Source: Candidatus Limiplasma sp. (GTDB taxonomy: Bacteria; Bacillota; Clostridia; Christensenellales; Aristaeellaceae). From it: a DNA stretch of 24,000 nt. Shown one piece after another: positions 6,279 through 20,767 of the stretch (the first letter of the stretch is position 1; each line of letters begins with the position of its first letter). The position numbers and the translations under genes are program-made. The stretch is from contig JAYFPK010000012.1 of NCBI GenBank assembly GCA_034927815.1, positions 20,227 through 44,226 on the forward strand. Direction: 5' to 3'. The notes under the pieces are model-generated. The model was not told where the DNA came from and did not search any database. It worked only from the letters and a program-made list of their open reading frames with translations.

Positions 6279-6307
6279 TTGATTTTTTTGGGGTATTTTG
6301 GTATCCT
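6279..6307 (+). promoter_or_regulatory. Candidate sigma-A promoter of the agr-like operon
   Basis: TTGATT (6279-6284), a 17-nt spacer, then TATCCT (6302-6307) preceded by TGg (extended -10). It sits in the only strongly AT-rich stretch upstream of 6354. A second TGGTATC(AT) motif lies at 6323-6331. Assignment is by eye only. Confidence 0.3.
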
Positions 6308-6353
6308 TACCTTCATTCATAGTGGTATCATGGATAGGGGGAGGAGGGCCAAA

Positions 6354-6926
6354 ATGATAGTAGAAATCATTGTGGTGTGCCTCCTTGCGAAGCTAAAACG
6401 GTTTCAGCTCCACTATCTTTTTCGCACATGGACGTTTTACCCCATTTTGCTGATCCAGTGCGCGCTGGTGGTGTTTCAGGCCTCTCTGTTCTTCCGGCAA
6501 TATGTTTTTGTGCGGTTTATCCCCTATACGGAAATGGCCGTCATCCTCTCCTTCCTTTTTGCCCTGTTTGCGTTCCGGCTATATACGCCGGCCATCATTG
6601 GCTCCGCATCCATCGGGGTGGGAACGCTGCTCAACAAGTTGGTGATTGCCCAAAACGCCGGTACAATGCCCGTATATCCCACCCTTTCCTACCTGACAGG
6701 CTATGTCACCCCTGAGATGGTAGCCTCTTTGGATAGCCTTCATTCCCTTGGCGGCCCGGAGACAAAGCTCAAGTTCCTTTCGGACTATATCGATTATGGG
6801 TATTGTATTTTAAGCCCCGGCGACGTTTTGATTCACCTGTTTGCCTGTATTATGCTATATGCGCTGATTAAGGCGGTGAATGCCCGCTACGGGAACCACT
6901 CCGGTAATCAATATCAGGAGGTATGA
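6354..6926 (+). CDS. Polytopic membrane protein, DUF5317-like
   Basis: ATG at 6354 is preferred over the track start 6279 because a GGAGGAG RBS lies at 6341-6347. The 190-aa product has 4-5 hydrophobic helices. The motifs IAQNAGTMPV and ILSPGDVLIHLF resemble, from memory, the NGGxMPV / SxGDxxx signature of DUF5317. The RBS of the next gene lies inside its 3' end. Confidence 0.75.
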   Translation: MIVEIIVVCLLAKLKRFQLHYLFRTWTFYPILLIQCALVVFQASLFFRQYVFVRFIPYTEMAVILSFLFALFAFRLYTPAIIGSASIGVGTLLNKLVIAQNAGTMPVYPTLSYLTGYVTPEMVASLDSLHSLGGPETKLKFLSDYIDYGYCILSPGDVLIHLFACIMLYALIKAVNARYGNHSGNQYQEV

Positions 6927-6929
6927 AAT

Positions 6930-7451
6930 ATGGGTGTCACGGCGGTTTCCAGCGAGATGTTGCTTGCAAAAGGCGTACCTGAGGCGTTCTTGGTTGCACT
7001 GGGGATTCATATTCTAACGGAAACCAAGGTTGAGTGGAAAAAATACCTGTTGATGAGCTTTCTGTTTATTCTGATTCCTTATTTGCTTCGGCGGCTCCCC
7101 ATCTCTTCCGGCATCAATACCGTGCTTTCTTTATTCGGACTTATCTTTGTGTTCCAGCTCCTGTACCACTCCGGCCTGCAGAAAATCGTCCGGGCGATGA
7201 TATCCCCCATTATCATCCTGATCCTGATTTCGGTTTCCGAAATGCTCAATTTGCTGATACTGGCGATGATCTACGGGTTTGAGGCAGCCAATATGATGTT
7301 CAAAACGCCCAACGGGTGGGCGCAATGCCTCTACACCTGGCCGTCCACGGTTTTTCTTGCGCTGTTGTTATTGGCCGCACACCATGTCATTAAGTCCATG
7401 AGGAAGAGGAAAGCTCAAAATGGAAAAGACTATGAGGAGATTGGCGGGTAA
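6930..7451 (+). CDS. Small polytopic membrane protein (~5 TM), unknown function
   Basis: AGGAGG at 6916-6921 lies 8 nt before the ATG. The 173-aa product is almost entirely hydrophobic helices with a basic C-terminal tail (KSMRKRKAQNGKDYEE). It starts 3 nt after the upstream stop and overlaps the agrB start by 32 nt. I recognise no family. Confidence 0.7.
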   Translation: MGVTAVSSEMLLAKGVPEAFLVALGIHILTETKVEWKKYLLMSFLFILIPYLLRRLPISSGINTVLSLFGLIFVFQLLYHSGLQKIVRAMISPIIILILISVSEMLNLLILAMIYGFEAANMMFKTPNGWAQCLYTWPSTVFLALLLLAAHHVIKSMRKRKAQNGKDYEEIGG

Positions 7452-8067
7452 AATCGCCCTCTCGCTTGGCTACGATTCCGAAAAGGAAGCCGTTATCGCA
7501 TATGGCCTATTCGCAATCACGCAAATCACCGTCACAATTGTGCTGGCTTTGCTTTTTGGCTTCATGGTGGGCGCGCCGGCGGAAGCGATGATCGTGTGCT
7601 TCTCGGTCAGTATCTACCGCAAATACAGCGGCGGCGCCCACGCCCATGACGCCGAGTTTTGCACTGTCATCAGCGTCATCTACTGTACCTTGGCAGCGTG
7701 GCTTTCAAAACAGTTGATTCCCCTTTACCATCCCTTTGCCATGCTTGGGGCCATCATCCTGGTCTATGCCCTTGTTTTTTGGATCACTTACCGGTATGCG
7801 CCGGTTGATTCCCCCAACAAGCCTATCAAGAGCGAGCAAAAAATCAAACGGATGCGCAAGGGCAGTTTTACCATCGTTTCGGCGTATATGGCTGTGCAGC
7901 TGTTTTTCTATTTTGGAAGCAATCAATGGCCGGCATTTCGTTCCTACGGCATCAGCCTTTTGCTGGGCATTAGCTGGCAGGCCTTTACGCTTACACCGCT
8001 AGGTGCCATTCTGCTGGACAAGCTGAATGTATTGCCTAAATACGCAAGAAAGGAGGTCTCCAAATGA
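7420..8067 (+). CDS. agrB: AgrB-family membrane endopeptidase (AIP-precursor processing/cyclisation)
   Basis: 215 aa with about 6 TM helices. YRKYSGGAHAHDAEFC places His and Cys 7 residues apart, as in the catalytic H77/C84 of S. aureus AgrB. RYAPVDSPNKPIK parallels staphylococcal VYAPAATKKKPIP. Its stop overlaps the start of an AgrD-like ORF (ATGA). Confidence 0.88.
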   Translation: MEKTMRRLAGKIALSLGYDSEKEAVIAYGLFAITQITVTIVLALLFGFMVGAPAEAMIVCFSVSIYRKYSGGAHAHDAEFCTVISVIYCTLAAWLSKQLIPLYHPFAMLGAIILVYALVFWITYRYAPVDSPNKPIKSEQKIKRMRKGSFTIVSAYMAVQLFFYFGSNQWPAFRSYGISLLLGISWQAFTLTPLGAILLDKLNVLPKYARKEVSK

Positions 8068-8186
8068 AAAAATTCTACGGTCTGGTTGCCGCTGTCAGTA
8101 CCCTCGTAGCGGCTCTGGTCGCTTCCTCGGCGTGCTTCCTGTTCTTCTATCAGCCCGAGGAGCCCGCTTCTCTCAGAAATGAGTAA
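8064..8186 (+). CDS. agrD: AgrD-type autoinducing peptide precursor (40 aa); predicted thiolactone core CFLFF
   Basis: Not in the supplied ORF track. AGGAGG at 8051-8056 lies 7 nt before the ATG at 8064. The translation is MKKFYGLVAAVSTLVAALVASSACFLFFYQPEEPASLRNE. It has an amphipathic/hydrophobic leader, a single Cys followed by four hydrophobic residues, then a QPEEP..LRNE acidic recognition tail, and it sits directly after agrB. Confidence 0.85.
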   Translation: MKKFYGLVAAVSTLVAALVASSACFLFFYQPEEPASLRNE

Positions 8187-8192
8187 GAAGCA

Positions 8193-8217
8193 ATGGGAGG
8201 CATTCCGTGCCTCCCAT
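8193..8217 (+). terminator. Hairpin after agrD (possible partial terminator/attenuator)
   Basis: ATGGGAGGCA-ttccg-TGCCTCCCAT is a perfect 10-bp stem lying 7 nt after the agrD stop. The tail CTTACGCG is only weakly T-rich. Confidence 0.4.
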
Positions 8218-8260
8218 CTTACGCGAATCCATGTAATTGCAAGGCGTATGGAGGTATGAC

Positions 8261-9928
8261 GTGGATAATGATAACAGCGCGAAAATAAAACAAATACTGA
8301 ATATCATTAAAGTGTCATCTCTGGCCTTTCCTGCAATTGCATTTTTACAGTATTACGCGCAGATCCCCAATCAAAACCTGTCCCTTGAGTCCCTGAAGCA
8401 GCAAATGATTGTTACTTTCGTTTTGCTGGCAATTCTGATGATCTATACGGTATGGATCTTTCTGCAAGCAAGAATTGACAATAAGACGGTTATCAAACGG
8501 TTGATCGACCCGATTATTTCGATGTCCATCGTCCTGCTTTCCGTGATTTTAACCGGCTCTTACCAAAGCAACTATAAGTTTCTGTTTATCTTCGTTATCC
8601 TGTTTACAAGCATTGAATGTGACCGCCGCACCAGCCTGACGGTAGCGCTTTTGTCAGCGCTGATCATTTTAGGCATTGATCTGTTTGCTTCCCCACGCAT
8701 TGAAATCAACGCCCATTTTGAAGACGATATTGTACTCGCCTTTGTGTTTGTGATCATCTCCTGGACAGTCAGCTACTACGATGAGATCCGTAAAAAGCAC
8801 ATCGCCTATTTAAAGGACCTTGCCAACATCGACGGGCTGACCGGGCTTTACAACCACCGGTATTTTTACGACTACCTGTCTGCCGAAATCGCAAGCTGCG
8901 CCAAAAAGGGCCTCCCCCTTTCCCTGCTGTTCATCGATATCGACAACTTCAAATACTATAACGATATGTACGGCCACCAAAAGGGCGACGATGTGCTGCG
9001 CTCCATTGCGCTGATCATGAAGGCCGCTTTCCCCAAGGACACCTTCATCGCGCGCTACGGCGGCGAGGAATTTGCCGCCGTGCTCAGCGGCTACAGCGAA
9101 GACCAAGCCGTTACCGAGGCGGAAAAGCTCCGCCGCGCGGTGCAGGAATACCCCTTTGACAGCCAGGAGGGCCTGCCCGCAGGCAACCTGACCGTCTCCG
9201 TCGGTCTGTCGTCCTACCCGCTCAAGGGCAAAACCGACGCGGAACTGATCAAGGGCGCGGACGACGCCTGCTACCGGGCGAAGTTCCTGTGTAAAAACCG
9301 CGTGGAAGCATACTCCTCCATTCTGGACGAGTTCCATTTCACCCCTGAGGTGATCACGCAGATCAAGACGCTGATCGCCGTGATCAACGCCAAGGACAAG
9401 TACACCTACCGGCATGTGGAGCGCGTGGTATTCTACTGCAACCTTCTGGCGAACCAGCTCATGCTCAGCGAGGAGGAAAGGCGGAACCTGGTGTATTCCG
9501 CTTACCTGCACGATATTGGCAAAATCAACATCTCGGAAGACATTTTGGTCAAGACCGAGCCGCTGACTCCGGAGGAATGGTCCATATTGCAGAACCACCC
9601 GCAATATGCCGTGGACATCATCCGCAACAACGACGCTCTGGATGAAGTGAAGCCCATCATCCTCCAGCATCACGAGCGGTATGACGGAAAGGGGTATCCC
9701 CTGGGGCTGAAAGGCGAAGAAATCCACTATCTGGCGCGGCTGCTGACCGTGGTGGACGCTTTCGACGGCATGACTTCCCTGCGGCCGTACCAGAAAACCA
9801 AAACCTACGCCCAGGCCATCGATGAGCTAACCCGGTGCAGCGGTACGCAGTTTGACCCCGATGCCGTGAAAGCCTTTATCCGCTGCATTGAGGAGCGAAA
9901 CAGCGACCGGGTGCCATGCATTCCGTAA
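8261..9928 (+). CDS. Membrane-bound GGDEF + HD-GYP protein (6-TM sensor module; putative bifunctional c-di-GMP synthase/phosphodiesterase)
   Basis: The frame is open from 8237 (TTG). GTG at 8261 is preferred because GGAGG at 8250-8254 lies 6 nt upstream. There are six hydrophobic helices in the first ~180 aa. The GGDEF domain follows (GLYNHRYF, FIDIDNFKYYND, ARYGGEEFAAVL) with no RxxD I-site upstream. The HD-GYP domain comes next (YLHDIGKI, HHERYDGKGYPLGL, VVDAFDGMTSLRPYQ). Confidence 0.9.
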   Translation: MDNDNSAKIKQILNIIKVSSLAFPAIAFLQYYAQIPNQNLSLESLKQQMIVTFVLLAILMIYTVWIFLQARIDNKTVIKRLIDPIISMSIVLLSVILTGSYQSNYKFLFIFVILFTSIECDRRTSLTVALLSALIILGIDLFASPRIEINAHFEDDIVLAFVFVIISWTVSYYDEIRKKHIAYLKDLANIDGLTGLYNHRYFYDYLSAEIASCAKKGLPLSLLFIDIDNFKYYNDMYGHQKGDDVLRSIALIMKAAFPKDTFIARYGGEEFAAVLSGYSEDQAVTEAEKLRRAVQEYPFDSQEGLPAGNLTVSVGLSSYPLKGKTDAELIKGADDACYRAKFLCKNRVEAYSSILDEFHFTPEVITQIKTLIAVINAKDKYTYRHVERVVFYCNLLANQLMLSEEERRNLVYSAYLHDIGKINISEDILVKTEPLTPEEWSILQNHPQYAVDIIRNNDALDEVKPIILQHHERYDGKGYPLGLKGEEIHYLARLLTVVDAFDGMTSLRPYQKTKTYAQAIDELTRCSGTQFDPDAVKAFIRCIEERNSDRVPCIP

Positions 9929-11938: not shown

Positions 11939-12145
11939 TCAGGCCACGTCGTAGCCCTGTTCCTGGATTTCAGCCTTGATCGCATCCAGAGCGCTTTGCG
12001 CGGGGTCGTGCTCCACGGTAACCGTGCCCGCCTTCAGGTCCACGCTCACGCCGCCGATGCCCGGCAAGGCGCTTACCGCCTTGGTGACTGCCTTTACACA
12101 GTGCTCGCAGGACATGCCGTCCACCTTGAGGATCGCTTTCTCCAT
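11939..12145 (-). CDS. copZ: Copper chaperone, HMA domain
   Basis: 68 aa: MEKAILKVDGMSCEHCVKAV... with the GMxCxxC metal-binding motif on a ferredoxin-like fold. AGGAGG RBS. It is the last gene of the copA operon. Confidence 0.9.
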   Translation of the reverse strand: MEKAILKVDGMSCEHCVKAVTKAVSALPGIGGVSVDLKAGTVTVEHDPAQSALDAIKAEIQEQGYDVA

Positions 12146-12159
12146 CAGGAATGCCTCCT

Positions 12160-12900
12160 TTATTGCAAGTCAAAGGGTTTCAGGAATTTCCACACCTGGG
12201 CGGCCTTGCCGTCCTCCTCCATGGAAACCTGGGCGTATGCCCAGCCCTGTACCTTTTCAGGGTCAACCCCCGCCGCGATCAGCGGCTCGGGGTTCAGCAC
12301 GAACACGATGTCCTTATCCTGGTTGGAGTTGTCGTAGCCGCTGGTTTTCATATCGTTGGCCCATTCAAACATGTTGCCGCCGCCCAGCTTCACGCCATAG
12401 TGGTCCAAAGAGGTATGGTAGTTGATAAAGTCCCGGTACTTGCCCACAATCTGCTCGTACGCCGCCAGCGCCGTGGGGCTGCCGGTGTAGGTCAGCTTGT
12501 CGTTGCCCAGCTTCGTGCCTACCGTCAGCCTCTGGCTTCCCAGGCCGCCCGTGGCCTCTCCTTCCGAAAAGGCATAAGCGCCGGGCAGCTTCTGCGGGTC
12601 CAACCCCGCGTCAAGGAAGGGCTGCGCGTCCACTTCCAGCATCACGTCGTACACAGGGGATTGGCTGTAATCTCCGCTCCAAATGAAGCGCGCCGAATCG
12701 TCCGGCGCCATGAGCGCCCAGCCCGCGTTCGCTTCATCCGCGGCAACCCTGTCGGGAATGGTTTTCAGCACCTCCTCAAAGGAGGCGATGGACTGCTGAC
12801 CTACCACGTCCAGGGACTTTATCCCCGAGCAGGCGGTGAGTACCGCCCCCAGGGCCAGGGCTGCGGCACCCGCCGCGATCCGTTTAAAGGTATTTTTCAT
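12160..12900 (-). CDS. Lipoprotein of unknown function embedded in the copA-copZ operon
   Basis: The signal peptide has a lipobox (AALALGAVLTAC|SG). The 246-aa product is acidic. An internal two-fold repeat contains P(F/L)(L/I)xAG(L/V)DP(Q/E)K(L/V)xG. It lies 16 nt after copA and 14 nt before copZ. I recognise no family. Confidence 0.75.
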   Translation of the reverse strand: MKNTFKRIAAGAAALALGAVLTACSGIKSLDVVGQQSIASFEEVLKTIPDRVAADEANAGWALMAPDDSARFIWSGDYSQSPVYDVMLEVDAQPFLDAGLDPQKLPGAYAFSEGEATGGLGSQRLTVGTKLGNDKLTYTGSPTALAAYEQIVGKYRDFINYHTSLDHYGVKLGGGNMFEWANDMKTSGYDNSNQDKDIVFVLNPEPLIAAGVDPEKVQGWAYAQVSMEEDGKAAQVWKFLKPFDLQ

Positions 12901-12916
12901 AATGCACCGTCCTTTC

Positions 12917-15394
12917 TTAGCGGCTGGCCTTAAACCTTTTCAGCCGCAGGGCGTTGGTCAACACGGATACCGAGCTGAGGCTCATGGCCGCGGCCGCAAA
13001 CATCGGGTTGAGAAGGGGTCCGTTAAAGAGCAGGTGGAGGATGCCCGCGGCGATGGGAATCCCGATTACGTTGTACCCAAAGGCCCAAAAGAGGTTCTGC
13101 TTAATGTTGCGGATGGTGCTGTTGGAAAGCTGGATCGCGGTAGGAACGTCCATCAGGTCGCTGCGCATCAGCACGATGTCCGCGCTCTCCATGGCCACAT
13201 CGGTGCCGGAGCCTATGGCGATGCCGACGTCCGCCTGGGCCAGGGCCGGCGCGTCGTTGATGCCGTCCCCCACCATGGCGACCTTGCGGCCTTCGGCCTG
13301 CAGCTTCTTCACCTCGTTGGACTTATCCTGGGGCAGCACCTCGGCCAACACACGGTCGATGCCCACCTGCTTGGCAATGGCGGCGGCGGTCTTTTGGTTG
13401 TCCCCGGTAATCATCGCCACCTCAATGCCCATTTTGTGAAGCCTTTCCACCGCCGCCTTGCTGGAGGCCTTCATCACGTCGGCCACAGCCACAATGCCCG
13501 CCAGCTGCCCATCCATGGCGACGTACATCGGCGTCTTGCCCTCCTGGGCCAGCCGGTCGCTGGCTTCCTCCATCCCCGCCAGGGAAATCTCCCGCTCCTC
13601 CATCAGCTTGCGGTTCCCCGCCAGAACGCCGCGGCCGCCGATCCGCGCCTCAATGCCGCGCCCGGTGATGGATTCAAAGCCGTCCACCTTCAGCAACTCC
13701 AGCCCCTTGGCCTGGGCCCCCGCCACGATTGCCTGCCCCAGGGGATGCTCGGAGCCTTTCTCGGCGGAAGCGGTCATTTGCAAAAGCCCGTCGGAGGGGG
13801 AGCCGTCCACGGTCAAAACATCCGTAACGGTAGGCTTGCCCTCGGTAATCGTGCCGGTCTTGTCAAACACGATGGTCTGTATCTTGTGAGCCGTTTCCAG
13901 CGCCTCGCCGCCCTTGATCAAAATCCCGTTTTCCGCGCCCTTGCCGGTTCCCACCATAATGGCGGTGGGGGTCGCCAGCCCCAGCGCGCAGGGGCACGCG
14001 ATTACCAGCACGGAGATGAAGATCGTCAGCGCAAACTTGATATCCCCACCCGTTCCAAAGAACCACGCCACACCGGCCACAAGGGCGATCAGGCAGACAA
14101 CCGGCACAAACACGCCGGAAACCTTGTCGGCCATGGCAGCGATGGGCGCTTTGCTGCCCTGGGCATCCTCCACCAGCTTGATGATCTGGGCCAGCGCCGT
14201 GTCCGCGCCGATTTTATCCGCCCGGAACTGGATGACGCCGGTGGTGTTGATCGTCGCCGCATACACGGAGCTGCCCGCTTTCTTATCCACCGGCATGCTC
14301 TCCCCGGTGAGCATGGATTCGTCGATGGAGGTATGCCCCTCCAGAACCGTGCCGTCCACCGGAATCTTCGCTCCGGGCTTCACCACGATCACGTCGCCGA
14401 TTTCCACCTCTTCAATGGGGATTTCCTTTTCCACGCCGTTTTGCAGAATGATCGCCGTTTTTGGCGCCAGCCCCATCAGCTTCTTGATGGCCTCGCTGGT
14501 TTTGCCCTTTGACACAGCCTCCAGGGTTTTGCCCAGCAAAATCAGGGTGATAATGACCCCCGCCGTTTCAAAGTAGAGGGCCTCCACCGCCATGAAACGC
14601 CCTTGGGCGATTTGCCATGTATTGTAGATGCTGTACAGCACGGCGGCAGTGGTGCCGATGGCGATGAGCGAGTCCATGTTGGGGCTCCTCTGCCAAAGGG
14701 CCTTGAAGCCGACGGTGTAAAACCTGTATCCCACGGCGATGACGGGGATGACCAGCGCCAGCTGCAGTAGCGCGTAAATCAGGGGGTAGTTCATGGGATC
14801 AAGGGATTTGGGGTAGGGCAGCCTGATCCCGTAGTGGGTCAGCATGGGTACCATGGCGATGTACAGCAGCGGCAAGGAGAACACCGCGGAGATGATGAAC
14901 TTCGTCCACAGCGTTTTGATCTCCTTTTGCTTGCGCGCCCGGTCCTCGTCGGCGGCGTCCGCCTTTTTGATCTCCAGCGCCTTGTATCCCGCCTTCTCAA
15001 TGGCCTCCCGGATATCGGAAAGGCGGACCTGCTGCGGGAAGTACGCCACCGTGGCCTTTTCGGTGGCGAAGTTCACCGAAGCGCTTTCCACGCCCTCCAG
15101 CTTCCTGATGGCCTTCTCCACCCGCTGCGCGCAGGCCGCGCAGGTCATGCCGCCGATGGGGATGGCGACGTTCTGGCTGTCTGCCTTTTCCACCACCTGA
15201 TAGCCGATTTTGGCTACGGCATCCTTGATATCGGCAAGCCGGAGCGCCGCGCCGTCATATTCCACGAACAGCTTCTCGCTGGCGAGGTTCACATTGGCCT
15301 GGGCAATGCCGGGAAGCTTGCGCACGACCTTCTCGATCCGTTGGGCGCAAGCCGCACAGGTCATGCCGCGTATGCTCAATACTTGGTTTTCCAT
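12917..15394 (-). CDS. copA: Copper-translocating P1B-type ATPase with two N-terminal HMA domains
   Basis: 825 aa. Two [10 protein letters not shown](I/V)EK motifs, plus TGESMPV, the transmembrane CPC motif ([11 protein letters not shown]), DKTGTIT, MITGDN and [13 protein letters not shown]. Confidence 0.95.
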
Positions 15395-15484: not shown

Positions 15485-15517
15485 TTGCAAGTATGCACTT
15501 TATTGTAATATAGTATC
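15485..15517. promoter_or_regulatory. 33-bp repeat copy 1 in the copA upstream region (shared palindromic -35 TTGCAA; candidate operator)
   Basis: TTGCAAGTATGCACTTTATTGTAATATAGTATC matches 15718-15750 at 28 of 33 positions, with an identical 18-mer TTATTGTAATATAGTATC. On the minus strand, TTGCAA-16 nt-TAAAAT (15463-15468) is a plausible copA promoter. Confidence 0.5.
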
Positions 15518-15717: not shown

Positions 15718-15750
15718 TTGCTAGTATATGCGTTATTGTAATATAGTATC
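15718..15750 (+). promoter_or_regulatory. 33-bp repeat copy 2: promoter/operator of the HxlR-family gene
   Basis: TTGCTA (15718-15723), an 18-nt spacer, then TATAGT (15742-15747), followed by GGAGG at 15766-15770 and the ATG at 15778. It lies exactly 233 bp from copy 1 in the same orientation. Confidence 0.5.
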
Positions 15751-15777: not shown

Positions 15778-16149
15778 ATGGACTGTTGCAACACCACTTA
15801 TCACTGCCCCGTTGACACCACGATCAACATGATTGGCGGGAAGTACAAATCCCTCATCCTATGGCACCTGATCAGCGGCACGCTGCGCTTTGGGGAGCTT
15901 CGCAGGCTGATCCCCCAGGCTACGCCCAAGATGCTGACCCAGCAGCTTCGGGAGCTGGAGGAAAATAACCTGATCGCTCGCACCGTGTACCCCGTGGTAC
16001 CGCCAAAGGTGGAATACGCCCTGACCGATTTGGGGCGAAGCATCCGCCCCATCCTTTCGGCCATGTATGACTGGGGGGCGGACTACCTGACGCAAAGCGG
16101 GATTCAGGTCAACTGCTCCATGTCCGCCCCCATGCCGCCAAACGGTTAA
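15778..16149 (+). CDS. HxlR-family winged-helix transcriptional regulator with Cys-rich N-terminus
   Basis: 123 aa. CPVDTTINMIGGKYKSLILWHL...RFGELRR..P..TPKMLTQQLRELEENNLI.R.VYP.VPPKVEYALT.LG is the classic HxlR/YodB/HypR pattern. The N-terminus is MDCCNTTYHC (Cys3, Cys4, His9, Cys10). Confidence 0.88.
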   Translation: MDCCNTTYHCPVDTTINMIGGKYKSLILWHLISGTLRFGELRRLIPQATPKMLTQQLRELEENNLIARTVYPVVPPKVEYALTDLGRSIRPILSAMYDWGADYLTQSGIQVNCSMSAPMPPNG

Positions 16150-16745
16150 TAACTTCTTTTCCAGTTGGCAAACACCTTTGTGGATTCCAGCAGGAAATCA
16201 TAGGAGATCGTGATGGCTTCCTCCGTCACGGTCTTATCTTTTGCAAAAATCGGCCATGGGTTGCACCCCCGGGATTGCACCTCCACCTGGCTCGTTTTGA
16301 AACGGTTCCCGCAGTTCTGGCAGACCAGCAGATCGCCTTGCTGCTTGTAATAGCCTCTGCCGGAGTCATAGCATATTTCGCAGGTGTTGAAGGCTGTGCG
16401 GATGGTGCCGTCCGCCACTTTGACCGCCAAAACCTCCATGGGCGTCCCGTCCACCGTCAAAGGATAGAAGCTGGCGGTTTCGGAAATATCCGCCACTTGG
16501 ATCGTGAGGCTTTCCCCCTTTGTGATCTCCCGGGGGCCCTCCGTAGCGTTCACCGCCGGACTGCCGCCCATTGCCGGATTGCTGTTGAGTACCGCGCCGC
16601 TGCTGTCCGCAATGCCGCTTCCCAAAATGGTCCCGCCGCCGCCTTGCGCCAAGAGGATCGCGGTGATGGCCGCCGCCACGGTCAGCGCCACCGCCGGGAA
16701 CACCCATTTTTGCTTTTTCTTTTTTGTGCCGCCATACTTTGCCAT
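16146..16745 (-). CDS. DUF2318-type membrane-anchored Cys4 protein
   Basis: 199 aa with a basic N-terminus plus one TM helix (WVFPAVALTVAAAITAILLA) and a Gly/Ser-rich linker. The domain FYPLTVDG..RTAFNTCEICYDSGRGYYKQQGDLLVCQNCGNRF...GCNPWP has two CxxC pairs typical (from memory) of DUF2318. Confidence 0.8.
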   Translation of the reverse strand: MAKYGGTKKKKQKWVFPAVALTVAAAITAILLAQGGGGTILGSGIADSSGAVLNSNPAMGGSPAVNATEGPREITKGESLTIQVADISETASFYPLTVDGTPMEVLAVKVADGTIRTAFNTCEICYDSGRGYYKQQGDLLVCQNCGNRFKTSQVEVQSRGCNPWPIFAKDKTVTEEAITISYDFLLESTKVFANWKRSY

Positions 16746-16791
16746 GGTTTGTTTCCCCCTTGCCTCATTTGGTTCTTGCCCGTCCCTTCGT

Positions 16792-16807
16792 CATGCCGGC
16801 CGGCATG
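16792..16807. repeat. Perfect 16-bp palindrome CATGCCGGCCGGCATG upstream of the DUF2318 gene
   Basis: It is self-complementary over all 16 bp. It lies 47-62 nt upstream of the DUF2318 start codon (16745, minus strand), inside the 238-bp gap between the two minus-strand genes. Confidence 0.6.
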
Positions 16808-16983
16808 GGACAGGCGCGTGTTTTTCCTTGTGTCAGGGCCCCGGTTCTTGTTTCTGTCTCCCAGGAGGAGCGCCGCCGCCAGGCGTCGCAGCAATTCCTA
16901 TGAGCGCCGCGATCCCGGGAAAGCCCATTGAAGATGTCAGGGCTTTTCGCAAAAGGGCGATACCCCCTTGCCCTCTATGCCGC

Positions 16984-19038
16984 TTACTGGCAGCAGGAGC
17001 CGCCGCCCGCCCCTTGCTCGAAGGTGTTCGCAGGCCAGATCAGGGTTTCAAACGCGCCCGCTTCCGCTTTGATTGCCTCAATGTCCGCTGTTTCAACGTC
17101 GTCCACCACCTTCATGTATCCATAAAAGGCGTTATCACCGGTGGAGAAATCAAAATCCACGTCCGGGTAGAAGTACAGCGGGTTATTCCCGGCCAGCAAA
17201 TCAAGCTGGGCGGCGTATTCGGGAATCAGGACCTGGGCTGCGTCCAAGGTGTCAGCAGCTTGGTTGACAACGTTCCATTTGACCCCCAATCCCGCCTTCA
17301 CCACCACAACGGCGGGGCGAAAGCCCGTATCCGTCAATTCAACCGTTACCTCCTGAAAGGCGTCGCCATAGTCGTCCGTCTTTTCCTGGGCTATGGCCAC
17401 CTCTCCGGTGGGGATGGCGTAGCCTGCGGGAATGGGCGTAAGAACCCCGTCCCCTTGGAGGAAAGCCCCCACAATGCCCCCTCCGGCGGTGGAAGCATTC
17501 TCGCTGCCGGCAGCCCCGGGCGCTCCGTCCTCCGTCACGGCGATGGTTCCGTGAATCATGCCCATCCAGCAGCTATACCGGACGTTCCCAACTTTTGTGG
17601 GGGTGAATTCGATGACGTTTTCCCCGGTTTTGAAGGAATACTCAATCCCGTACTCCTGAATAAAGATCCGGTTGTTGCAGCCGTTGATGCTTCCCTTGGG
17701 CGCGTCGATGATCCACTTCACAGGAATCCCGGCCTGAACGGTGATGCTGGGATACCGGCTGGGAGACAGGGTGCTGTTGATGATCTGCTTCCCATCCGCC
17801 ATTGCGATGCCACTTTCGGCAGCGGAATTGCCCGTTGTTCCTCCCACAACATTCCCCCATTGGTTCCAAAACAACAGCGCCAACACCGTGACGCCCAAAG
17901 CGGCGGCGGTGGAAGCCGTTTTGTGGGAAGGCTTGCGAAAGGGAAGGCTGGACACCACGCCCACCGCGCAAAGAGCGAGAATGACCAGGAGCAGCAGGTC
18001 AGGGGGCAAAAATCCCGACAGGCTTCCGCCCTGGGAGAGCATCGCCAGCCCCAGCACGACCACCAGCACCGCGCCCACGCTCATCACCTTCCGGGTAAAC
18101 TTCTGGCCCAAGGCCGACACGATGGAGCCAAGGCCCAGCATGAGCGGCACCGTTCCCAGGCTGAACAGGAACATGGAAAGCGCCCCCGCCAGGGGGTTCC
18201 CCGAGGCCAGCGCCACGATCTGCATCGACTGCAAGGGCCCACAGGGCATCAGTCCGTTGAGAAGCCCCACAAACAACGGGCTTTTGCTTCTGGCCTTCTC
18301 CGCCCCAACCTTCCCGGCGAGAATCCTGGGCATCCTGGGGTTGAGCTTGCGCAGCCAGGGGAACAATCCCAGCATGTTGATTCCCATGATGACCATGAAC
18401 ACCCCGGCCACCAGCTTGAGGATTCCCTGCACCATGGCGGGCAAGCCCACCTCCGAGCCGCCGCCGAACAGCATCCCGGCAAAGCCCAGGATGAAACCGA
18501 TGACGGTGTAGGAAATCACCCGCCCAAGGTTGTACAAAAAAGCGGGCCTGAGGGCGGCGAAGCGGCCCGTCTTTTCGGCGGGAGCTTCCCCTTTGGGGAT
18601 GCACTGGGAGAGGTTGATGCCGCCGCACATCGCAATGCAATGCACGGAGGTAATCAGCCCGATGACGAAGAGCATCCCATAGCCCATTTTGGTGTCGGCC
18701 AGCTGGCTGGGCACCAGCAGGTTCAAAACCCCGAAATGCTGCAAAAGCATATACAGCGAAACGATGATTGCCAAAACCCCGAGTACGCGGCCAAGGTTGG
18801 ACGCCTGCCGCCCGTTCCCCTTCACAACCCGGTAATCCAAGCTTTCAATGGCTTCAACGATGTTTTGCGGCGAAATGGTATGGGCGTCATAAGCCACCAC
18901 GGCGGTTCCCGTGCTGTAGCTCACCGCCGCGCTCTTCACACCGGCGGTATTGCGGAGCTTTCGCTCAATCCTTTTCTGACAGCTTACGCAGGTCATCCCC
19001 TCGATGCGCAGCTCCTTGGTCATTACGCCAGATTCCAT
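16984..19038 (-). CDS. Fusion protein: HMA domain + ~9-TM DsbD_2/TauE-SafE-like core + two cupredoxin-like extracytoplasmic domains, C-terminal CCQ
   Basis: The start is taken at the ATG at 19038, since AGGAGG lies ~10 nt upstream. The track's longer 19251 start has no RBS and a junk-like N-terminus. HMA motif: LRIEGMTCVSCQKRIE. TM motifs: SVHCIAMCGG and NGLMPCGPLQ. The first beta-rich domain carries GCNNRIF...YSCWMGMIHG. A second related domain follows, and the protein ends GGGSCCQ. Confidence 0.85.
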   Translation of the reverse strand: MESGVMTKELRIEGMTCVSCQKRIERKLRNTAGVKSAAVSYSTGTAVVAYDAHTISPQNIVEAIESLDYRVVKGNGRQASNLGRVLGVLAIIVSLYMLLQHFGVLNLLVPSQLADTKMGYGMLFVIGLITSVHCIAMCGGINLSQCIPKGEAPAEKTGRFAALRPAFLYNLGRVISYTVIGFILGFAGMLFGGGSEVGLPAMVQGILKLVAGVFMVIMGINMLGLFPWLRKLNPRMPRILAGKVGAEKARSKSPLFVGLLNGLMPCGPLQSMQIVALASGNPLAGALSMFLFSLGTVPLMLGLGSIVSALGQKFTRKVMSVGAVLVVVLGLAMLSQGGSLSGFLPPDLLLLVILALCAVGVVSSLPFRKPSHKTASTAAALGVTVLALLFWNQWGNVVGGTTGNSAAESGIAMADGKQIINSTLSPSRYPSITVQAGIPVKWIIDAPKGSINGCNNRIFIQEYGIEYSFKTGENVIEFTPTKVGNVRYSCWMGMIHGTIAVTEDGAPGAAGSENASTAGGGIVGAFLQGDGVLTPIPAGYAIPTGEVAIAQEKTDDYGDAFQEVTVELTDTGFRPAVVVVKAGLGVKWNVVNQAADTLDAAQVLIPEYAAQLDLLAGNNPLYFYPDVDFDFSTGDNAFYGYMKVVDDVETADIEAIKAEAGAFETLIWPANTFEQGAGGGSCCQ

Positions 19039-19294
19039 AGGGCGGCGTCCTCCTTTCGTTTTCTGCAGCCCAGTGTAGCGGAGCGATGTGTAGAAATTAT
19101 GCGGATCAGAAAATTTCCGCGGTATTTTTCCGGGGAAGCATCCTGTTCTTTCCAATATTTCATTGTACCTCCCCATGCCGCCCGCCAAGTGATGGGTAAA
19201 AACAATGGCAAGCCGGAGGGGGAGAAGCGTTGCGCCGCCATGGATTCGCACCAGGCAAGCATCCGGGGATGGGCCGGACCGCGGGGCTCAGACG

Positions 19295-19329
19295 AAGGCG
19301 GCCCCCCGGCTTCGCCGGGGGGCCGCCTT
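19295..19329. terminator. Very stable GC hairpin (16-bp stem, 3-nt loop)
   Basis: AAGGCGGCCCCCCGGC-ttc-GCCGGGGGGCCGCCTT. It lies ~210 nt downstream of the minus-strand gene ending at 19542 and ~260 nt upstream of the HMA-fusion start. There is no U-tract. Confidence 0.35.
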
Positions 19330-19541: not shown

Positions 19542-20465
19542 TTAATCGCCCCGGTCGCCTCTGACCACAGCCTCCGGGACGCCCTCATAGAACAAAGCCA
19601 GCCATTTCCGTTCGCTTTCCCGATAGTCCGCTTCATCGGCAAAGGGCGTGCGCACCTCATCCATCAAAACCGTTTCCGTACCCGTGGAATCATAGCTGGT
19701 CACCTGGATGCGGATGTTTTCCCAGTTGCTCTGCTCGTCATACAGCACCGACGCCCGCCGGTACAGCATAGGCCGGCCATCCCCGCCGATGCGGTACAGC
19801 TCGCGGATGCCGGTGATGGCGCTGTCATGAATATAATTGCTGATGAACCCCTGCTCCGGGTAAAGCATATAGGAGGACAGGCCGTCCAGCACCGGCTCGT
19901 AGTGATACTGCCCGTCGGCAGGGCTATACAGGAAATGGGTGCCGAACACATTGGACGCTCCTTGTGAGCGCAGCGCCGTCAAATCAGGATAGCCGTCAAA
20001 ATTCAAGTCCTGTATTGTGACCAGGGGCACCAGGCCTTCCCGGTATTCCACGGAGGGAAAGAGCAAATCCTCAAAGACGTGATCCGGGCGGTCCTTGTCC
20101 GTGATGTGGATCCGGTACACCTGGTCGTCTTCCCACTGCGGCACCTTCAGGGAAGTCAAATACACGTCCACCTGAAGATTGGGCATGTTCCCGCTGCCTC
20201 CGCTGACGGAAAAGACAGGGGTTGCTCCTTGGGCGCAGTAAGGGCAAGGCCCTTTCATTTGTTTCCGCGCATCGTCCGGCAAGGGCTGGAGCGGCAGATA
20301 CTTGGCGTGTACCCCGGCGCAGTTTGGATCGATATGGGCGTAGTTTCCGCCCTCCGGATTGTAATACCAACGGGGCGTATGGGGGTCCGGCGCGCTTTGC
20401 CCAAGCGCGGGCCAGCATGCCCAACAGAGCACGCACGCAAGAAAAACAGCTCCAAACCTTCTCAT
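19542..20465 (-). CDS. Secreted protein of unknown function
   Basis: ATG at 20465 has GGAGGA 7 nt upstream. Signal peptide: MRRFGAVFLACVLCWACWPALGQSAP. The N-terminal motif is WYYNPEGGNYAHIDPNCAGV...GPCPYCAQ, and a DLNFDGYPDL Ca-binding-like loop is present. The upstream 77 codons of the track ORF overlap the DUF503 gene and are Gly/Arg junk. Confidence 0.7.
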   Translation of the reverse strand: MRRFGAVFLACVLCWACWPALGQSAPDPHTPRWYYNPEGGNYAHIDPNCAGVHAKYLPLQPLPDDARKQMKGPCPYCAQGATPVFSVSGGSGNMPNLQVDVYLTSLKVPQWEDDQVYRIHITDKDRPDHVFEDLLFPSVEYREGLVPLVTIQDLNFDGYPDLTALRSQGASNVFGTHFLYSPADGQYHYEPVLDGLSSYMLYPEQGFISNYIHDSAITGIRELYRIGGDGRPMLYRRASVLYDEQSNWENIRIQVTSYDSTGTETVLMDEVRTPFADEADYRESERKWLALFYEGVPEAVVRGDRGD

Positions 20466-20488
20466 ATTGCATTCCTCCCCTGACCTTC

Positions 20489-20767
20489 TCACTGAAATCG
20501 CTCCACCTCCATCAACTGCGCCTCGGCGTTTTGCTCCAGATGGCGGATCACGGCATCCAGCATCTCCCGGGCATGATACCCCTTGCCCGAGACCACCGCC
20601 ACGCCGATGGTAAGCATCTCCCACACATCCTGGGTATCCACCTCCGCAATGGCGGCGTTGAATTTGCGCTTTGCTCCGTCGATGAGGCTGCGGCATACCT
20701 GGCGCTTTTCCTTTAACGAGCGGGCATCCGGTATGTGAAACCGCAGTTGCGCAGACAAAACCACCAT
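20489..20767 (-). CDS. DUF503 (YlxP-like) protein
   Basis: 92 aa. MVVLSAQLRFHIPDARSLKEKRQVCRSLIDGAKRKFNAAIAEVDTQDVWEMLTIGVAVVS matches the DUF503 pattern from memory (SLKEKR...FN.s.AEv..qD.w). GGAGG RBS. Confidence 0.8.
   Translation of the reverse strand: MVVLSAQLRFHIPDARSLKEKRQVCRSLIDGAKRKFNAAIAEVDTQDVWEMLTIGVAVVSGKGYHAREMLDAVIRHLEQNAEAQLMEVERFQ

Follow-up and report, generated by a model that had tools for sequence, protein, structure and literature searches.

What does the pair of genes lying beside a copper-export operon in Candidatus Limiplasma sp. do, and what, if anything, travels through its membrane part? The question arises in a stretch of 24,000 nt (hereafter the window; contig JAYFPK010000012.1 of assembly GCA_034927815.1, positions 20,227 to 44,226 of the forward strand), and all coordinates given here are positions within it. 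Gene A encodes a long membrane protein with metal-binding modules at both ends, and gene B a small DUF2318 protein. A first interpretation made from the letters alone (the sequence-only reading) had singled out both open reading frames (ORFs), which lie on the minus strand, and had proposed that they form a thiol/electron or metal relay across the membrane. Our tentative answer, held with a confidence that stops somewhat short of even, is that A and B constitute a copper-stress module that relays Cu(I) across and away from the cytoplasmic membrane, probably in the outward direction. Host immune cells turn copper against bacteria, and it serves the same end in animal feed and on surfaces; gut anaerobes encounter it in its more toxic form, Cu(I). 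To our knowledge, only CopA, CopZ and CsoR are understood for copper in these organisms.

Gene A (16984..19038, minus strand) was delimited by its ORF, its Pfam matches, an alignment of homologues and an AlphaFold2 model. It encodes 684 aa, with a stop codon at 16984-16986 and an ATG start at 19038 (MESGV...) that agrees with the N-termini of the aligned homologues. A longer, GTG-started reading up to 19251 was rejected, as its additional residues are unconserved in the homologues. At E ≤ 1e-5, A has more than 7,900 matching proteins in the database, and the best 120 of those listed share its architecture. In A itself, a HMA domain is followed by a DsbD_2 permease, then by a CupA-like and a cupredoxin-like domain, and finally by a tail with CC. 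The size of the family and this common architecture show that the motif set is not a chance pattern; the family is very common, and the window copy is typical of it. Database annotation of the A and B families is limited to 'sulfite exporter TauE/SafE' or 'DUF2318', and some A homologues are named 'UreH domain-containing' by NCBI. Pfam, AlphaFold2 and Foldseek bear out the anatomy that the sequence-only reading had described, with about nine helices and two outward-facing cupredoxin-like domains, and the motifs that it had picked out (GMTCVSC, HCIAMCGG, MPCGP, GCNN...YSCWMGMIHG and a terminal GGGSCCQ) are all present. In an alignment of 36 homologues, to which the words invariant and nearly invariant refer for A throughout, these motifs are invariant, with the exact sequence of the tail as the exception.

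The protein begins with a cytoplasmic HMA domain (residues 10-69; 18832..19011, on the minus strand like all parts of A), which matches PF00403 at E 1.6e-13 (51.3 bits, threshold 24.8) and whose modelled structure superposes on CopZ 6ff2 with a TM-score of 0.95 and a root-mean-square deviation (rmsd) of 0.8 in Foldseek. Its loop keeps GMTCxxC, with C17 and C20 invariant. A first transmembrane helix follows (TM1, about residues 82-101; 18736..18795; helix 82-101 in the AlphaFold2 model). It is an added helix, predicted to lead the chain from the cytoplasm to the outside ahead of a six-helix core, since the DsbD_2 profile begins only at residue 123 and covers TM2 to TM7. This UreH-like core (residues 123-331; 18046..18672) matches PF13386 at E 1.5e-47 (162-165 bits, cut-off 24.9) over profile positions 2-198 of 199. 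Its TM2 carries the invariant sequence S-x-H-C-x-A-M-C-G-G-I-N-L-S-Q (HCIAMCGG in the window), and TM5 the invariant G-x-M-P-C-G-P-L-Q (MPCGP). The invariant columns of the core are H133, C134, M137, C138, M264, P265, C266, M122, M222, M289, M300 and M333, and C146, M215, M218, M272 and M319 are nearly invariant; 11 methionines of the A helices belong to one class or the other. H133, C134, M137 and C138 lie in TM2, C146 stands at the cytoplasmic end of the same helix, and M264 and C266 lie in TM5, so that the invariant cysteines occupy core helices 1 (C134 and C138) and 4 (C266). A helical hairpin, TM8-TM9 (about residues 346-398; 17845..18003; AlphaFold2 helices 346-363 and 370-398), is optional. 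Helix positions were taken from AlphaFold2, because a crude hydropathy count was unreliable and overlooked the Pro/Gly-kinked TM5. The membrane part of A has no sequence relative in the PDB, and none was found among the top 50 Foldseek matches either.

The AlphaFold2 model shows nine membrane helices, then a pair of beta-sandwich domains and, at the end, a tail that is disordered. These C-terminal domains are predicted to face the outside of the cell, because loop charges, helix parity and the orientation of related cores all point that way. The loops contain 21 Lys+Arg on the predicted inside and a single one outside, by calculation and by direct reading. The TM8-TM9 hairpin is absent from many homologues and is gained or lost only as a pair, giving proteins of 7 or 9 helices whose C-terminus remains on the same side of the membrane. 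Finally, both ends of a DsbD/CcdA core normally lie outside, which fits a cytoplasmic N-terminal HMA domain joined to the core by one extra helix.

The first of the outward domains (predicted extracytoplasmic, about residues 412-502; 17533..17805) was recognized by phmmer, Foldseek and alignment. Against PDB sequences, phmmer matched it to Streptococcus pneumoniae CupA (2mry/4f2e) at E 3e-6 and to the metal-binding domain (MBD) of CopA (CopA-MBD, 4f2f) at E 3e-5; by Foldseek, its fold resembles CupA 4f2e (TM-score 0.81, rmsd 2.1) and CopA-MBD 4f2f (TM-score 0.78). The CupA residues Cys74, Cys111, Met113 and Met115 align to C454, C490, M492 and M494 of A, all four invariant, as are the G-C-N and Y-x-C-W-M-G-M motifs (GCNN...YSCWMGMIHG in the window). 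To judge from alignment and model, this domain would be a CupA-type binuclear Cu(I) domain with a CxMxM + Cys site. CupA itself binds two Cu(I), one at a bis-thiolate site and one at a Met-rich site, and acts in the cytoplasm (PMC7558416). The likeness to CupA and to the CopA N-terminal domain of S. pneumoniae extends from the fold and the Cys...Cys-x-Met-x-Met ligands to the following His-Gly, which A also keeps, and CupA is, like A, membrane-tethered and encoded beside copA. In contrast, CupA is a cytoplasmic chaperone anchored by a single helix, whereas the domain in A follows an odd number of helices, with a predicted outward orientation; and CupA feeds a CopA with a matching cupredoxin domain, whereas the CopA of the window has two ordinary HMA domains.

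A second cupredoxin-like beta-sandwich (about residues 535-665; 17044..17436) was identified from AlphaFold2, Cupredoxin_1 and Foldseek. It is all-beta, with a block confidence (pLDDT) mostly of 71-94 over residues 540-669, and its Pfam match to Cupredoxin_1 (residues 561-597) is sub-threshold, at 24.6 against a cut-off of 27. Foldseek also relates A to the Cupredoxin_1 protein 4hci of Bacillus anthracis (TM-score 0.79) and, when both domains are taken together, to two-domain multicopper oxidases, over about 310 columns, and to NirK. The invariant residues of the second domain are only Pro, Gly, Phe, Trp and Tyr; with no conserved Cys, His or Met, it appears to be a cupredoxin-like fold without a metal site. 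The type-1 blue copper ligands (His-Cys-His-Met) are missing from A, where the first domain offers Cys, Cys, Met and Met and the second none. The 'double cupredoxin' of the sequence-only reading thus holds for the fold, by Foldseek, while the first domain is sharpened to a CupA-type Cu(I) domain and the second turns out to lack ligands. Homologues of about 500 aa have lost the second domain, and those of about 800 aa carry it followed by a second CupA-like domain. The protein ends with a flexible Gly-rich tail, GGGSCCQ (16987..17043; pLDDT < 50), a feature also seen in homologue tails: CC or CH occurs within the last 6 residues in 114 of the 120 best listed homologues, short forms included. 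Similar to this tail are two mobile arms that carry metal, namely the HCH tail of CTR1 and, in MerA, the vicinal cysteines.

Gene B (16146..16745, minus strand), defined by ORF, Pfam, alignment and synteny, encodes 199 aa. As the sequence-only reading had it, this is a membrane-anchored, outward-facing DUF2318 protein with two CxxC pairs, which PF10080 and the alignment confirm. The domain (formerly DUF2318, now 'FtrD-like'; residues 89-192; 16170..16481, minus strand) scores E 1.2e-24, 86.8 bits against 26.3, and is modelled with pLDDT > 90. It lies C-terminal to the N-terminal membrane anchor and contains C122, C125, C142, C145 and C161 in the pattern CxxC-x16-CxxC-x15-C. Across 31 aligned relatives, R-T-A-F-N-T-C-x-x-C-Y ... 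C-Q-N-C-G ... G-C-N-P-x-P is kept in all (31/31) with the five cysteines invariant, and the CxxC...CxxC...GC pattern recurs in 120/120 homologues. A lipobox is present in 85 of 117 homologues and a twin-arginine-like motif in one (1/117); in the window copy the lipobox Cys is lost and the N-terminal anchor is retained. The fold shows a weak but consistent likeness to Rieske-type ferredoxin domains (Foldseek, E ~1e-2, TM-score ~0.5), and the spacing of its Cys knuckles is Rieske-like, but the ligands are CxxC/CxxC rather than CxH...CxxH. We considered B as an Fe-S protein, after the Pfam name 'iron-sulfur containing', and rejected this as the principal interpretation, given the single twin-arginine motif and the weak Rieske match; a pre-assembled Fe-S cluster is unlikely from these features. 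Export of B in an unfolded state, by the Sec or lipoprotein route, means that any metal must be acquired outside the cell.

A profile search for B through 1.84 billion representative proteins gave 1,306 clusters, of which the best 150 matches were examined. Almost all of these stand alone and measure about 100-290 aa; a few have three or four tandem DUF2318 domains. The domain list given for COG2836 in a metagenomic study implies HMA, DsbD_2 and DUF2318 in one protein (PMC4938975); no such fusion was found in 80 A loci or among these 150 best representatives. Tandem outside modules occur in individual relatives, with four CupA-like repeats in one A homologue (P0007) and 3-4 tandem DUF2318 domains in three proteins (P0339, P0360 and P0375). 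The outside metal-binding modules of A and of the DUF2318 relatives expand in parallel.

The two genes also travel together. A scan with one genome per species yielded at least 588 confirmed A relatives, and the best 80 loci were analysed. B is present in 55 of these 80, and in 48 of the 66 with at least 1.2 kb of downstream sequence, 42 of which have it directly downstream on the same strand. Viewed from B, 45 of 46 metagenome loci with at least 2.2 kb of upstream sequence carry an A homologue. The co-occurrence that had been suggested as a check on the pairing is therefore found from either side. B is almost never found without A, and A can occur without B; this asymmetry indicates that B depends on A more than the reverse, as expected of a client or acceptor. 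In two Ruminococcus/Faecalimonas metagenome-assembled genomes (MAGs; L021 and L025), the order is B, a CopA-like ATPase, a response regulator, a histidine kinase and A, and the position of B beside the ATPase hints that it may work with CopA too.

The neighbourhood of the pair is that of copper export. The sequence-only reading had set it beside a cop operon and a Cys-rich regulator, which we could identify as follows. CopA, a Cu(I)-exporting P1B ATPase (12917..15394, minus strand; Pfam), scores 637 bits against a cut-off of 397 with TIGR01511. CopZ (11939..12145, minus strand) is a copper chaperone of 68 aa with MSCEHC, recognized from its ORF and a HMA match at E 2.6e-19. The regulator (15778..16149, plus strand) is of HxlR type (PF01638, E 1.4e-34). 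From A the cluster continues with B, the divergent HxlR gene, CopA, a lipoprotein and CopZ; HxlR alone is on the plus strand, the others being on the minus strand. This order recurs in Lacrimispora, Oscillospiraceae, Peptococcaceae and a Synergistaceae MAG. Among the 80 loci, CopA is near A in 41-44, CopZ-like proteins in 20, an OmpR-type response regulator in 31 and a histidine kinase resembling heavy-metal sensors in 29. The carriers of A are anaerobes: Lachnospiraceae, Oscillospiraceae, termite-gut Treponema, Coriobacteriales, Synergistaceae and Dehalococcoidia.

Regulatory sequences of relatives point the same way. In a human gut locus (L112), the promoter of the A homologue, TTGACA-17-TATAAT, is overlapped by two canonical CsoR boxes. 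This agrees with an in silico study of the metagenomic CsoR regulon, published in 2016, which listed the COG2836 (HMA + DsbD_2) and DUF2318 family among the CsoR targets of gut Firmicutes (PMC4938975). Convincing boxes are confined to this locus; two others (L002 and L073) have weak regex matches about 175-180 nt upstream. Upstream of the window copy of A, a CsoR operator (TACCC-N-GGGTA) is absent. What is found there is a promoter/operator element conserved in A loci, CATAATTTCTACACATC, 7 nt, TACACT (19072..19101, minus strand). In a survey of the 250 nt before the start codon in 131 A loci, a TTCTACAAAT-like motif occurs at a fixed place, 52-64 nt before the start, in 35, and anywhere within the 250 nt in 45. 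The TTCTACAAAT core spans Bacillota, Coriobacteriales and Synergistaceae, and the consensus, also called the CAYAAYTTCTACAAATC element, reads CAYAAYTTCTACA(A/C)ATC, ~7-8 nt, (TGn)TAnnnT. In Lacrimispora the element takes the form of a direct repeat, CTACA-N6-CTACA, which would suit a response regulator of the OmpR type.

The intergenic region between hxlR and copA is organized differently. It contains two exact 18-bp copies of TTATTGTAATATAGTATC (15500-15517 and 15733-15750, plus strand), where none is expected by chance. The copies sit in direct repeats of about 33 bp that are 233 bp apart, each overlapping promoter-like hexamers, with a GC-rich stretch of about 200 bp between them. At least 12 other species have related GGTACTATAnnACAA sites in this intergenic region, and from its placement the TTATTGTAATATAGTATC repeat is probably the operator of the HxlR regulator. 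An operator shared by the A promoter and this region was sought and rejected: none is present in the window, and the GGTACTATA-type site is confined in relatives to the hxlR-copA interval. Copper control of the window A-B copy is something that we infer from synteny and from relatives, since its own promoter carries neither the copA-type operator nor a CsoR box.

How could such a protein pair handle copper? The domain identities, the conservation of ligands, the topology logic, the synteny with copA and copZ and the CsoR operators of a relative are directly supported here, and they suggest the following path. The cytoplasmic HMA domain of A would take Cu(I), directly or from CopZ, and hand it to a ladder of soft ligands in the DsbD_2/UreH-type core, with entry at C146. 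The ion would then move along a mid-membrane ladder to which TM2 contributes C138, C134 and H133 and TM5 contributes C266 and M264, and pass the conserved methionines of the outer half of the membrane. Outside, the mobile CC tail would take it over together with the CupA-type site (C454, C490, M492 and M494), and B, an exported Cys5 protein, would be the downstream acceptor or sink. The second beta-sandwich, which has no ligands, would probably serve as a spacer or docking domain. That metal and not electrons moves, that it moves outward and that B binds Cu(I) are the steps that we infer.

The direction is suggested by the CsoR-type control seen in relatives and by the constant company of efflux genes. 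The choice between metal and electrons has to be weighed against the precedent of DsbD, CcdA and ScsB, whose core is related to that of A: as in A, core helices 1 and 4 carry essential-looking cysteines and the two ends of the core face outward. ScsB has been linked to copper tolerance. By analogy, the membrane cysteines of A could carry reducing equivalents outward, so that the cysteines of B, of the CC tail and of the CupA-like site stay reduced; in a variant, they could drive the reduction of Cu(II) to Cu(I) or the repair of thiols oxidised by copper, in the manner of ScsB in Salmonella. The strong DsbD_2 match speaks for such an electron relay, as do a precomputed match to the DsbD family PF02683 in some A homologues, the two CxxC pairs and weakly Rieske-like fold of B, and the fact that FetA, a DUF2318 protein of Campylobacter jejuni, acts alongside thioredoxins. 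CupA, moreover, is described as reducing Cu(II) in vitro (PMC5646241, as cited in PMC7558416). We nevertheless regard an electron relay as unlikely. The window A has no PF02683 match even at E ≤ 10. Its core helix 1 differs from that of DsbD, CcdA and ScsB in an additional Cys together with a His and a Met (HCxxMC); conserved His and Met beside membrane cysteines appear typical of Cu(I) paths and unneeded for disulfide exchange, in which the many other conserved methionines would have no role either. The cytoplasmic entry domain is a HMA metal-binding fold and not a thioredoxin partner, and no thioredoxin-like domain (of the ResA, CcmG or ScsC type) is fused to A or encoded nearby: among 612 neighbours in the 80 neighbourhoods no such donor or acceptor was found, WCxxC occurring in two, both large unrelated enzymes. 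The hosts are strict anaerobes, in which external thiols stay reduced. Finally, the UreH relatives of the core are metal permeases, and the multiplication of outside binding modules in relatives suits stoichiometric metal binding. Of the two relays that the sequence-only reading had left side by side, the one for metal thus fits better, and the one for thiols or electrons is less favoured.

If metal moves, it might also move inward. The CupA-like domain, the CC tail and B would then trap copper or silver outside, and the permease would pass the ion to the HMA domain and on to CopZ and CopA, much as MerP-MerT feeds MerA or as in uptake of the YcnJ type. The UreH-type secondary nickel permeases, which have a PF13386-type core in common with A, are uptake permeases, with metal transport experimentally supported for some (PMC2667541). 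They differ from A in being stand-alone importers beside urease, hydrogenase or SodN genes, with no HMA or CupA-like domain, CC tail or copper context. The architecture of A also mirrors MerP-MerT and MerTP, in which a HMA domain and membrane cysteines pass a thiophilic metal by ligand exchange, as proposed here for A, and multiplied outside binding domains would suit capture. In the mer systems, however, the membrane fold is unrelated to that of A, the HMA domain lies outside and the direction is inward; the NCBIfam model NF033556 (MerTP_fusion) matches A only through its HMA part (profile positions 118-185), at 56 bits against a cut-off of 180. Other Gram-positive copper systems, such as YcnJ of Bacillus subtilis (a CopC-CopD fusion) and the CopL lipoproteins, likewise join an outward beta-sandwich or lipoprotein copper module to the membrane, but their folds and ligand sets differ from those of A, and both lack a HMA domain in the cytoplasm and a core lined with cysteines. 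YcnJ is an uptake protein whose expression is induced when copper is limiting. Against import of copper stand the CsoR-type derepression at high copper in relatives and the co-location with efflux genes, and strict anaerobes have few copper enzymes to supply. We consider it decidedly improbable.

A different metal, whether Fe(II)/Fe(III) in a redox role as in Ftr/P19 systems or Hg, Ni or Cd, is very improbable: the need for a DUF2318 protein in the FetMP/P19 iron uptake of C. jejuni, the Pfam name of the B domain and the binding of Hg, Cd and Zn by HMA domains would favour it, but the neighbours are a Cu-type CopA (TIGR01511) and CopZ, no Ftr1, P19 or EfeUOB gene was found among the scanned ORFs of the window or the recurrent neighbour families of the 80 loci, CxMxM + Cys is a Cu(I) site, and B lacks the Tat signal that would make an Fe-S cluster likely. 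The sequence-only reading had rightly pointed out that DUF2318 occurs in Ftr1/P19-type iron-uptake clusters, as exemplified by FetA of C. jejuni (PMC10783030, PMC6083913), and had allowed for Cu/Fe sites; the copper half of that proposal is supported by CopA, CopZ and copper-type regulators, the iron half is not, in view of the missing Ftr1/P19 neighbours. According to a report of 2018, the place of DUF2318 genes is 'almost always' a Fet/P19 cluster (PMC6083913), a rule that fails for the large B subfamily. FetA (CJJ81176_1651, of the FetMP-FetABCDEF/P19 system) has an outward DUF2318 domain with CxxC...CxxC...C, as in B, and is needed for function. It differs from B in having eight helices and a YHS domain, and its iron-regulated cluster also encodes an Ftr1-like FetM, P19, an ABC transporter and thioredoxins; B is a small (lipo)protein that stands alone, and its setting is copper clusters.

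Several points weigh against an outward Cu(I) relay and account for the caution with which we propose it. The core descends from thiol-disulfide electron carriers and has cysteines in the same two helices, which, together with the weak Rieske-like fold of B, makes an electron relay credible. The UreH relatives import metal rather than export it (PMC2667541). The promoter of the window A lacks the operator that is repeated between hxlR and copA and carries a different conserved element instead. The need for a second path beside the Cu(I)-exporting CopA is unexplained. The AlphaFold2 model of the whole of A is of moderate confidence (mean pLDDT 69.5). Lastly, the function of this architecture had been described as not established, and our literature search agrees: it returned no experimental work on the A-B system or on any member of the family.

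The copper link of the family is not new, having already appeared in the in silico CsoR regulon (PMC4938975), and the parts (HMA, DsbD_2/UreH core, CupA site and DUF2318) are known; it is their combination that is uncharacterised. Three features depart from precedent: a CupA-type site at the outer face, a core that derives from DsbD but seems to have been adapted to a soft metal, and DUF2318 in a copper rather than an iron context. A wider and more doubtful proposition is that the DsbD_2/UreH fold constitutes a further class of bacterial Cu(I) translocator beside P1B ATPases and RND pumps, working by cysteine-then-methionine ligand exchange towards CupA-type and DUF2318 acceptors, with DUF2318 as a general extracytoplasmic copper-handling domain rather than an iron-sulfur one. 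On that view, FetA of the P19/FetMP system would be recast as a loader or manager of the copper required by P19. Hundreds of species carry the pair, among them members of the Lachnospiraceae and Oscillospiraceae, termite-gut Treponema and Coriobacteriales, consistently in copper clusters. If the Cu(I) path is real, it would represent a new type of transporter in copper homeostasis and an instance of a CupA site working at the outer face of the membrane. It would also give a testable function to DUF2318, a domain essential in the P19 iron uptake of pathogens including Campylobacter and Yersinia.

Some further features of the locus deserve mention. HxlR orthologues stand between B and copA in 21 loci (L001-L016, L026, L039, L072, L073 and L078), always divergent to copA. 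Their cysteines comprise a variable N-terminal C, CC or CxC, the CPV of the family and a C-terminal (C)CSM, which suggests that these regulators may form a copper-sensing HxlR subfamily; we found no literature on such a subfamily. The lipoprotein downstream of copA, X246 (246 aa; 12160..12900, minus strand), has the lipobox LTAC and matched no Pfam or NCBIfam family. An orthologue follows CopA in 22-23 of the best 80 loci, and X246 thereby joins the uncharacterised members of the copper cluster, with a probable extracytoplasmic location.

The gap between A and B (16746-16983, minus strand) is unusually long, at 238 nt, and has hairpin-capable stretches such as AAAGCCC...GGGCTTT; a weak hairpin with a T-run lies directly past the stop codon of A. 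These features could be signs of attenuation or of an internal promoter for B. An ORF of 70 aa between the two genes (16682..16894) was dismissed as spurious, as it overlaps the start of B and consists of low-complexity basic sequence. On the other side of A, the ORF at 19542-20696 (minus strand) has a probable internal Met start (MRRFGAVFLAC...) that yields a signal peptide, Cys pairs (PNCAG...GPCPYCAQG) and only a faint PliI-like family match, and a GC-rich hairpin (about 19286-19316) separates it from the A promoter. At a distance from the copper cluster, the region 6279-9928 (plus strand) has a lower GC content (46-52%, against about 60% elsewhere) and encodes a DUF5317 protein, an unassigned ORF of 173 aa, an AgrB homologue and a GGDEF + HD-GYP protein; from this gene content it looks like an agr-type quorum-sensing island.

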